This document shows, in pieces, positions 60,201 through 62,960 of a DNA stretch of 64,000 nucleotides (the stretch's first letter is position 1; every line of letters starts with the position of its first letter). Location of the stretch: NCBI GenBank assembly GCA_046563655.1, contig CM102290.1, forward strand, positions 13,454,001-13,518,000. Direction: 5' to 3'. Origin of the DNA: Yuukianura sp. NJ FZ-2021 (taxonomy: Eukaryota). The position numbers were made by a program, and so were the translations under genes. The notes below the pieces were generated by a model. That model did not search any database, was not told the origin of the DNA, and saw only the letters and a list, made by a program, of their open reading frames with translations.

Positions 60201-62960
60201 CTCAGGAGGTCTTTTAAGTCATTAGAAAAATGTGATGGAAATCGCACTTTTCCAGAGACAATTTTCTCATAAATTTGTATAGGTTGGTCAGCGAAGAAGG
60301 GCGGATATCCGGCGGCCATTTCGAACACAAGGACTCCCAGAGCCCACCTATATTCACAAAATTAAGACAACTATTACACCCATTTAAAAATTTCTTAAAA
60401 CAATACGGCTCCCTTATTGTTTTAAAAATGCCCTATCGCTTTAACAAGTTTTGCCTTATTGTTTTAAACATTTTGAATGAAACGTACCAGTCAACCGCCT
60501 TATTGTACCCCTTTGAGAGAATGATTTCAGGTGCCTAAAAAAACAAAATTACAGATAAAATTTTCGTATTTTGGGAACCTGGAAAACATTAAAAAGAGAA
60601 AGTTCATAATAATAACGTCACTCACTAAATACTCCGGGGTCCTGTTAAACAAAAGAAACACATTAGTCACTGAAAATTAACTTCTGGGAGTAAATATAAA
60701 ATTAAAATAATCCAAACATTAGTCACTTACCCACACAGTGTCCAGGTTCTTCCTTTCACTCGCTTAGCAAAGCCAAAGTCTGTTACCTAAAATGAACGCA
60801 ACAAAATATTTAGTTATACTAAAAATTCCGTACCAGCTCTTTAGTGCGAAAACAATAAACGCGACAGTGGCAACGGTGGAACTGAACATTATTAGGGTTT
60901 TTCAAAGGGTGGCTAAGGTTTCATTGTAATATGGGTCCAGTGTTGCCAAGTTCTGGAATTCGCGTTTATTGTTTTCGCGCAAATTTCCTGGAACCAAAAG
61001 TTCTGTGAAATTGTGTTAAATTTGAATGCTGTTCTTACTTTCAGGTAACCTTGGCTATCAATCAATAGATTTTCTGGTTTTAAATCCCGATAAATCAAGT
61101 CAAGGTAGTGGAGATATTCGAAGACAAGAACTATCTGGGCAGCATAAAATCGAGAATGAGGTTCACTGAAATAAAGAGGGAGTAAATTACATTTCCCGCC
61201 AAATTCAAAATATTGCAAATATAACTGATAGTAAGTAATTCCAAATATGAAGCAAGGGAAAAAATTAAGATAGATTAAGATAGATTTTCCAGAGCGAGGA
61301 AGGGACAAGTCCAAAAAATCTACGATAGCTTGGAGTAGCGAAGTTGCTAAAGGAAGAGAAGACGCTTCTAAAATCCCATGTTATTTTGCTTTCTACATAG
61401 AAGAGGAATTCCATTCGGTCAAATCATGCCAGTTCCAACTATACTTTCTTGTACTAGTACAGTCGAACCTCTCATTGCGCAACACATTCTGATTGGTCGG
61501 TTTCAAATTCCAGTTTTAGCGGGCAAACACTACAGCTTCAAATTCTAACCAACACCCCACATCATCTTTTTATTTTTGCTTTATTTAAAAGCGAATTCCC
61601 GCCAAAAACTGAAGTTTGGCGGTATCCGGCTGGCAGGAGGGGCGGAGCTAAAAGTTGCACAATGAGGGATTGTACTGTAGTAAGGTTATTACTACTATGG
61701 AGTATTTTCGAATATTTCGTAACTCAAATGCAAGCTCTCAAGAAAAGAAGCAATTTTTCTTAAGCCCTCTTCTTCCTCCATATTTCCATGTCTCGGATAT
61801 CCATCGTCTCAATCCCAGTTGGGAGATTGGATTATAACTCTCCCACATTTCTATCTCTTGCCAGATCACACAGATTGAAGCATGATACGAAACGCCGGCA
61901 TCTTCCTCTCAAATACATTCACTTTATTTTTCCACAACGATCCGGTACCAATCCCGGCAAAAGTGTTCAACTCTTTAACTTTTTCTACTCATGCAATATT
62001 TATGTTCTCTTCTTTCTTTGAGGGAGCAAGGCTATAATTTGACAGCCGACCTATGCTTAAGCTTGTAAAAAAAACTTGGAAACGCAGGGATTTTCATGAA
62101 AAACTTGTGATTTAAAATACCATCTTCAAAAATAAAATTGTGACATATACCGTAAAACTTGTAATAAACTCCCGTTTATTTCAAATCTCAAATTTTATTA
62201 TCGGCGGTTAAAATAAAGCCGGCATTTGTCATAGACCTGCATTTATTAGAAGCTTTACGGTATTTGCAGTTAGAAAAGGAAAAGTAATGATGAAACAGCG
62301 AAATGAATCCTGTATAGAGCAGGTTTTCAACCTGGCTGGCTGAAACTGGATTTCAGCCGGGATGGCTGAAACTGCAATTCAGCCTGGTGGGAGATGGAAG
62401 GTTTTTCGGCAGATTAAGTTTTAGACATGCAGTTTTTCGCAAAGAAGATCCCAAAAACCAAATATTAAAGATTAAAGTAGGATAGTTGGATTCCCGGAGT
62501 TGAAAAGGGAATTATGGCGGCAGCATTTTAAAGCCAGGAGCTGCAGCATGCAATAATCCCGCAGTTAAGTTCCAGTTTGCCCCAGAAACTACAAGTATGG
62601 CCATGCATCTACTGAGAGAGAAATGAAAATAGAGGCAGAGAAAGTTTGGGAGTAGGTCCTCCTCCACAGCATTTGACTATGCCAGCAGTAGTACTGTTAC
62701 TATAGTAGCAGGATGCTCAATGACCACAACCTTCCTTACCTAAATCGACCTGTTTTTCTCAGATGGGAAAACATTTCCCCACCGGGAATATACTCTAGTA
62801 CCATGTATAGATTGGAATTGTCCTGCAACAAGTTCAAAAACCAAAACAAATCAATTATTAAGACAGTCAGTTATTACCTAAACCGCCCCAGTCTTCGGAG
62901 ATGTGAAAACATTTCACCTCCATTTACGTAATCCATCAACATGTAGAGATTTGTTGAGTC
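57278..62960 (-). CDS. Pka-C1: cAMP-dependent protein kinase catalytic subunit, 3' portion (5' exons lie beyond the window)
   Basis: [122 protein letters not shown]. Confidence 0.97.
57841..58220. mobile_element. pogo/Tigger-like MITE
   Basis: TA-CAGTCAAACCTCTCATTTCT..AGAAGTGAGAGGTTTGACTG-TA. Confidence 0.85.
58336..58464 (-). CDS. Alternative terminal exon of PKA-C
   Basis: TAG acceptor, phase 0, [42 protein letters not shown]; aligns with the canonical last exon at 57278-57403. Confidence 0.85.
   Translation of the reverse strand, partial: VLPVALIPKVTGPGDSRHFEAVPEVALQIGPEDVFGSHFEEF
59653..59873. mobile_element. pogo/Tigger-like MITE
   Basis: TA-CAGCAGAACCTCTCTTATAGCAACTC..GAGTTGCTATAAGAGAGATTTTTCTG-TA; related end near 16094. 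Confidence 0.8.
61460..61677. mobile_element. pogo/Tigger-like MITE
   Basis: TA-CAGTCGAACCTCTCATTGCGCAAC..GTTGCACAATGAGGGATTGTACTG-TA; related end near 55940. Confidence 0.8.
62150..62260. mobile_element. TA-flanked MITE with CCGTA ends
   Basis: TA-CCGTAAAACTTGTAATAAA..TTTATTAGAAGCTTTACGG-TA. Confidence 0.75.
62740..62822 (-). CDS. PKA-C hinge exon, copy A
   Basis: 83 nt, AG/GT flanks, [27 protein letters not shown](S). Confidence 0.93.
62878..62960 (-). CDS. PKA-C hinge exon, copy B
   Basis: 83 nt, AG/GT flanks, [27 protein letters not shown](S). Confidence 0.9.

Follow-up and report, generated by a model that had tools for sequence, protein, structure and literature searches.

We describe a pair of adjacent, homologous exons, here called A and B, in a gene coding for protein kinase A's catalytic subunit (PKA-C), located on the minus strand of a 64,000-nucleotide (nt) stretch of the Yuukianura sp. 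NJ FZ-2021 genome (contig CM102290.1; the whole stretch is called the window below). The two exons encode alternative versions of the segment that carries the gatekeeper and the hinge, and we consider them to be a functional mutually exclusive pair in the springtail orthologue of PKA-C1, with a probability of about 0.8 for this reading, which includes a proposed mechanism of exclusivity, B as the default exon and a steering of the choice by RBFOX-type factors. The anatomy of the pair and the exon that follows it are as follows.

Exon A, 62960-62878, minus strand, 83 nt: codes for PKA residues 112-138, with L119, M120 (the gatekeeper), D121, V123, N124, R134 and L135.
A-B intron, 62877-62823, minus strand, 55 nt.
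Exon B, 62822-62740, minus strand, 83 nt: codes for the same residues 112-138, with V119, L120, E121, I123, P124, K134 and T135.
Next constitutive exon, 61165-61039, minus strand, 127 nt: with its first base it supplies the end of the Ser139 codon that A or B has begun; it codes for 42 residues with the catalytic loop RDLKPEN and is present in a single copy in the window.

Exon A is bounded by the acceptor tttctag and the donor gtaata, which is weak and has no G at position +5, and exon B by the acceptor gttgcag and the donor gtaagg, with G at +5. The two exons are identical at 55 of 83 nucleotides (66%). The 27 codons fall into three sets of 9, namely identical codons, codons with synonymous differences only and codons with a changed residue; 18 of the 27 residues are therefore shared. 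The proportion of synonymous differences between A and B within the window (pS) is 0.84, which is saturated, and that of non-synonymous differences (pN) is 0.21, which indicates an old duplication whose protein sequence has been held.

Both exons open in phase 0, and their last two bases begin a codon that is completed in the following exon. If A and B are joined, a stop codon is reached nine codons into B, and if neither is used, the next exon opens with an in-frame TGA. With exactly one of the two, the remaining window exons give an open PKA-C frame down to the stop codon. The pair thus combines adjacent homologous exons that agree in length and phase and have separate splice sites (as seen in three genomic sequences, see below) with a reading frame that is destroyed by inclusion of both exons or of neither. 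An earlier note on this stretch had reported two 83-nt exons with intact splice sites, 55 nt apart, both running from phase 0 to phase 2 and therefore losing the frame on double inclusion. This description is confirmed in every part, as AG and GT are present at each exon, the translations are as reported there and the joined exons end in the stop within B, and the exon pair is thus a real observation.

The host gene encodes a PKA catalytic subunit of the PKA-C1 type (an AGC kinase). The window exons are 89-100% identical to PKA-C1 of Folsomia candida, both alternative C-terminal exons included, and the source should therefore be a springtail that is related to F. candida and belongs to another species. 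The spliced window translation holds the RDLKPEN loop, DFG, APE and the C-terminal tail F-x-x-F. The N-terminus, the Gly-rich loop and Lys72 are encoded by exons outside the window, above position 64000, and a matching upstream exon is present in two related contigs described below. Folsomia isoform X4 matches the solved structures of PKA C-alpha (4wih_A and 1atp_E) with E-values of about 1e-197 over residues 13-350. As the alignment of the Folsomia orthologue to 1atp_E keeps a constant offset of 140, the duplicated exon codes for residues 112-138, with exon positions 9, 10, 12, 16, 22 and 23 corresponding to residues 120, 121, 123, 127, 133 and 134, respectively. This alignment bears out the mapping made in the earlier note, in which the segment was said to hold the gatekeeper at 120, the hinge at 121-123 and residues 127 and 133/134.

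To look for the pair in related genomic DNA, which the earlier note had also suggested, a degenerate DNA pattern for 13 exon-A residues was scanned against metagenome contigs. The scan yielded two contigs, L001 and L002, both of them genomic. In each, the upstream exon, A and B follow one another in this order, with AG/GT at all four edges, so that both exons were recovered in the arrangement seen in the window. The A-B intron measures 55 nt in the window, 46 nt in L001 and 52 nt in L002. In the same order, the donors are gtaata, gtaatt and gtagtg for A and gtaagg, gtaaga and gtaagc for B, meaning that G at +5 is found for exon B in all three species and for exon A in none. Conservation among the three sequences falls off steeply at the borders of the exons, and the introns flanking the pair, which range from hundreds to about 1600 nt, are unalignable. 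Within the exons, the differences are mostly synonymous. In exon A, 15 of the 18 differences between the window and L002 are synonymous and 3 are not (binomial P of 3.7e-8, where random changes would give a neutral synonymous share of about 21%), and in exon B all 8 are synonymous. Against L001, the window shows synonymous differences only, 3 in A and 1 in B. Both copies are thus under purifying selection across the three genomic sequences, and this synonymous excess between species upholds the suggestion, originally made from the window by itself, that both exons are selected.

At the protein level, homologues were collected with the neighbouring 42-residue exon as query, giving 1549 proteins at E <=0.001 among 1563 candidates, of which the best 120 were listed. 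A-type sequences were also sought with the A region of Folsomia isoform X2. Isoforms were compared as equal-length isoform or model pairs, and it should be considered throughout that the RefSeq forms are predicted models. All 27 residues of window exon B are identical to Folsomia PKA-C1 X1, X3 and X5, and 24 of the 27 residues of window exon A are identical to X2 and X4. X1 and X2, as well as X3 and X4, are of equal length and differ by 7 residues, all inside the segment, so that the mutually exclusive behaviour proposed in the earlier note is seen in relatives. In the cluster to which the Folsomia protein belongs, with ten members, X2 and X4 carry the A-type segment, seven carry B and one is a fragment without the region. 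The Folsomia isoforms are like the window in the gene, in the exon pair and in both alternative C-terminal exons; they differ from it in exon A, where Folsomia has T113, E121 and K134 and the window has S113, D121 and R134, and in its other exons, which show 89-98% identity.

The same kind of pair is found well outside the springtails. All 12 of the 12 equal-length pairs compared, from nine arthropod species, differ only inside the segment. The first set consists of two pairs each from Folsomia and Eriocheir sinensis and one each from Macrobrachium rosenbergii, Pollicipes pollicipes and Parasteatoda tepidariorum, and the second set of two pairs from Artemia franciscana and one each from Uloborus diversus, Amphibalanus amphitrite and Trichonephila inaurata. 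As in the window, the isoforms in these other arthropod pairs differ only within residues 112-139. Two further pairs of unequal length proved to be different sequences and were rejected. For one decapod, the evidence extends beyond gene models: P0137, a Logan-derived 366-residue protein encoded on a 3127-nt contig, equals Eriocheir X6 except for three residues of the segment, and as a contig of this size is too small to hold the introns, P0137 represents mRNA-level evidence.

The residues that are exchanged are not the same in all groups. Of the two forms in the eight non-springtail species, the first combines R134 with L, I, M or V at the next position, and the second combines K134 with I or S. 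The second form of the springtails has K134-T135, and the A exons of Folsomia and L002 are exceptional in having K134-L135. The decapod, spider and Artemia pairs differ by 3-4 residues and have L120 in both forms, and the barnacle pairs differ by 10-11 residues, with residues 114-124 heavily changed. The wider arthropod pattern lies mostly at residues 134-135. From the window, the earlier note had proposed switches of the gatekeeper (M/L), of the hinge (D/E) and of residue 134 (R/K). The gatekeeper switch, with M in A and L in B, stands for the springtails, where it is found in four sequences and in these only, and does not extend to decapods, spiders and brine shrimp, which keep L120 in both forms. 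The D/E and R/K134 switches turned out to be unstable even among springtails, since E121 and K134 are found in the A exons of both Folsomia and L002. Among the matches listed, the Daphnia isoforms (11) and the insects are of the Lys134 type only, and the outgroups, Priapulus, molluscs, flatworms and mammals, have Arg134-Ile135. In the available part of PMC3625193, one undivided exon is stated to hold the coding segment of the arthropod homologues studied there, an arrangement that would leave no room for an exon pair in them.

We propose that one of the two exons, A or B, enters each mature mRNA, so that the gene would yield two catalytic subunits with residues 112-138 (strand beta5, the hinge and helix alphaD) as their only difference. 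Two safeguards would ensure this. The first would be the A-B intron, which at 46-55 nt would be too short to splice, and the second the reading frame, as inclusion of A and B together, or of neither, would lead to an immediate stop and presumably to mRNA decay. That the short intron acts first and the frameshift serves as a back-up is likely, judging from intron sizes. All 11 constitutive introns inferred in the window, six in the PKA-C gene and five in a neighbouring gene that we take to be ALG2-like, are at least 64 nt long, and wherever the branch point for B is placed, it lies at most about 43 nt from the A donor.

The explanation that survives best beside this one keeps the pair and changes how it is controlled. 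The short intron would be spliceable, mRNAs containing both A and B would be removed by nonsense-mediated decay, and the choice would be made by competition between splice sites or by trans-acting factors. The stop nine codons into B is in agreement with such frame-only control, and some animals do splice introns as short as these 46-55 nt. However, the A-B intron has remained at 46-55 nt in three species while its neighbours reach hundreds to about 1600 nt, and none of the 11 constitutive introns of the window falls below 64 nt. We thus regard frame-only control as rather unlikely, though it has to be taken seriously. Much less probable is that competing long-range RNA pairings between a docking site and a selector, as in Dscam-type clusters of insects, determine the choice. 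The stretch from A through the intron to B folds no more stably than shuffled sequences in any of the three species (z 0.14, 0.75 and 1.08). In addition, no intronic block conserved among the three sequences was found beyond about 15 nt from the exon edges, and this also speaks against such pairings, although long-range pairs outside the folded stretch were not searched.

Within the proposed pair, B would be the default exon and A the regulated one. This assignment follows from the better donor of B in all three species and from the springtail PKA-C1-like transcript-derived proteins retrieved, of which 7 of 7 (P0019, P0130, P0033 and P0273-P0276) carry B. Clusters of (U)GCAUG downstream of B may allow RBFOX-type factors to direct the choice. 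In the window, the candidate elements are as follows.

Three TGCATG motifs, 62607-62426, on the strand of the gene (minus): 133, 188 and 309 nt downstream of exon B; candidate intronic elements of the RBFOX type.

The sequence (U)GCAUG is the binding motif of RBFOX-type splicing factors. In L001, TGCATG occurs 66 and 218 nt downstream of B (cluster at 1343-1499), and in L002, GCATG occurs 5, 42 and 287 nt downstream of B (cluster at 274-1832). The numbers differ in weight. Over the whole window, 26 motifs are found where 25.7 are expected, which is no excess. L001 contains 6 where 2.5 are expected, a number reached by 11 of 200 shuffles. In L002, 15 copies of GCATG stand against 5.6 expected, none of 200 shuffles reaches this count, and 9 of the 10 copies on the gene strand are located in the intron after B. 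As the positions were noticed after the fact, these motif statistics should be regarded as only suggestive.

The two proteins would differ in the nucleotide pocket, by the gatekeeper (M or L) and by residues 119, 123 and 124, and on the surface of alphaD at residues 134/135, which adjoin the substrate-contacting Arg133. The swap may tune the ATP pocket and the docking of inhibitors or substrates, as the earlier note had proposed. In the sections of PMC13167742 available to us, Met120 serves as gatekeeper, the hydrogen bonds of the hinge come from Glu121 and Val123, and residues 120-127 form the hinge. According to the accessible portion of PMC11728977, Glu127 binds the Arg at P-3, Arg133 bonds the backbone at P-5 and, in one complex, the backbone oxygen of Arg134 bonds the Arg at P-7.

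A more radical alternative to a functional pair is that exon A is an unused, decaying pseudo-exon, that only B is spliced in and that the A isoforms of Folsomia are artefacts of gene prediction. This would account for the presence of B in all seven springtail transcript-derived proteins and for the weaker donor of A. It does not sit well with the finding that frame, length and AG/GT of exon A are kept in three genomic sequences, nor with the 15 synonymous against 3 non-synonymous differences between the window and L002 in an exon whose flanking introns can no longer be aligned. It would also leave unexplained the alternative segment in isoform pairs of eight other arthropod species and the alternative form in the transcript-length decapod contig. 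Conserved AG/GT, purifying selection and annotated A isoforms, taken together, indicate that A is a selected alternative exon rather than a dead copy, and we consider a pseudo-exon very improbable. A duplication produced by the assembly can be dismissed for practical purposes, as the two copies are only 66% identical in DNA (55 of 83 nt) and two independent metagenome contigs contain both of them in this order.

Several points weigh against the mutually exclusive pair as we propose it and should be kept in mind when considering its probability. The seven springtail PKA-C1-like proteins derived from transcripts that were retrieved all carry B, as noted, and the A-bearing PKA-C1 sequences are exclusively RefSeq predicted models. 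The steric comparison is built on 11 inferred introns, and for five of them, those of the ALG2-like gene, we chose the boundaries among candidates. The exchange of M for L at the gatekeeper is a conservative change. Finally, a group of A-like proteins, P0142-P0146, differs from PKA-C1 over the whole length and may be a paralogue rather than A isoforms.

These A-like proteins had been candidates for proof at the mRNA level that exon A is used, and were rejected as such because they differ from PKA-C1 throughout. A tree of 34 rows chosen out of 202 proteins, built with the segment removed, places P0142-P0146 on a long branch in a clade of their own (support 97/85), nested in that of the springtails (99/95). 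They may represent a springtail paralogue with a constitutive A-like hinge, or the A isoforms of divergent springtails. More generally, P0142-P0146, P0195 and P0203-P0205, from JGI and Logan, are full-length or partial PKA-C-like proteins that have an A-type hinge segment and are divergent elsewhere; without the segment, they too group on a long branch among springtail PKA-C1.

Mutually exclusive exons are not new to this kinase. In Aplysia, PKA-C reportedly has mutually exclusive cassettes, A1 and A2 (Beushausen et al. in 1988). Among our matches, Mizuhopecten X1/X2 (P0234/P0237) and Lingula X8/X9 (P0173/P0280) also form pairs, in which the swapped exon is the next one, that is, the exon of 42 residues with the catalytic loop, and several of the gene models among the matches listed (P0001-P0015) hold this 42-residue exon twice. 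The window resembles the Aplysia cassettes and those of Mizuhopecten and Lingula in having exclusive cassettes in the PKA-C kinase core that provide two subunits per gene. It differs from them in the exon concerned, since they swap the catalytic-loop exon while the window duplicates the preceding one and has the catalytic-loop exon (61165-61039) in a single copy, so that it cannot be assigned to the Aplysia type.

For the enforcement of exclusivity, a parallel is alpha-tropomyosin, whose exons 2 and 3 are reportedly made exclusive by steric hindrance (Smith and Nadal-Ginard in 1989). There, the exons are adjacent and the intron between them is too short for joint use of the donor and the branch point, and the window, with its short A-B intron, would resemble this case. 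A third comparison is C. elegans kin-1, also a PKA-C gene, for which alternative N- and C-terminal exons are described in the text available of PMC3771449. Like the window, it is a single PKA-C gene diversified by splicing, and the alternative C-terminal exon of the window fits this scheme; the splicing described in that text is at the termini only, with no internal mutually exclusive exon.

With respect to novelty, no description of a splice event at the hinge exon was found in the full-text literature, a body of text that largely leaves out subscription journals. A prawn paper (PMC9767951) that came up in this context mentions mutually exclusive exons in its available text, but those of an actin gene, and was rejected. 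A bioinformatic study of decapod PKA from 2025 leaves open, in the part available (PMC12608923), whether one gene produces the isoforms by splicing. At least for this segment, a splicing origin of the decapod isoforms is supported by the RefSeq pairs. The splice event is in fact already implicit in the RefSeq isoform models of nine species.

The distribution of the pairs would be compatible with an ancient exon pair, possibly ancestral to the arthropods, in a single gene for the PKA catalytic subunit, which would provide two kinase cores with distinct nucleotide-pocket and docking properties and would have been lost in insects, whose coding region is contained in one exon. We put this forward tentatively, as a possibility with somewhat less than even odds. 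If it is true, arthropods reach by splicing what vertebrates reach with the separate C-alpha and C-beta genes, and this would be a parallel to what molluscs and brachiopods have in the adjacent exon, an independent exclusive pair. The isoforms surveyed show that mutually exclusive splicing has diversified PKA-C in two superphyla of animals, at exons that are next to each other. The pan-arthropod pattern is a by-product of the analysis that is more interesting than the window's own pair. PKA is the standard example of a protein kinase, and its residues 120-127 and 133-135 belong to the positions that have been studied best. Natural pairs of isoforms with differences in this segment only are ready-made experiments on the effects of gatekeeper, hinge and alphaD on ATP affinity, on sensitivity to inhibitors and on the docking of substrates, PKI and regulatory subunits.

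Downstream of the catalytic-loop exon, the remaining exons of the PKA-C gene in the window are as follows.

Exon, 60786-60731, minus strand, 56 nt: codes for 19 residues.
Microexon TPEYL, 60641-60626, minus strand, 16 nt: part of the activation segment.
Exon, 60534-60488, minus strand, 47 nt: codes for 16 residues.
Exon WALGVL...RNLLQ, 60347-60188, minus strand, 160 nt.
Exon VDLTKRYGN...FQKK, 60119-60015, minus strand, 105 nt.
Alternative last exon, 58464-58336, minus strand: divergent tail ending in HFEEF and a stop codon, homologous to the tail of Folsomia X1, X2 and X5.
Canonical last exon, 57403-57278, minus strand: tail ending in EFAEF and a stop codon, with 39 of 41 residues identical to Folsomia X3/X4.

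Introns of 89 and 91 nt lie on either side of the TPEYL microexon, and in L002 this region is fused with the neighbouring exons into one. Paired alternative tails like HFEEF and EFAEF also occur in Daphnia, Artemia, spider and decapod isoforms, and the divergent tail occurs alone in Priapulus and Lingula. One intron of the gene contains an element at 60830-60996 that resembles a miniature inverted-repeat transposable element, with inverted arms of 35 nt that are 80% complementary. A 40-nt arm related to this element (85% identical) is located at 63385-63424, in the intron upstream of exon A. The neighbouring gene at 53901-55537 (plus strand), mentioned above for its introns, resembles an ALG2 alpha-1,3-mannosyltransferase, a name that we presume from its motifs; its five short introns are inferred to be 64-75 nt long. 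Further along the window, positions 36064-40545 are occupied by a satellite in which a 59-nt unit is repeated 76 times with 96% matching; its G+C content is about 20%.

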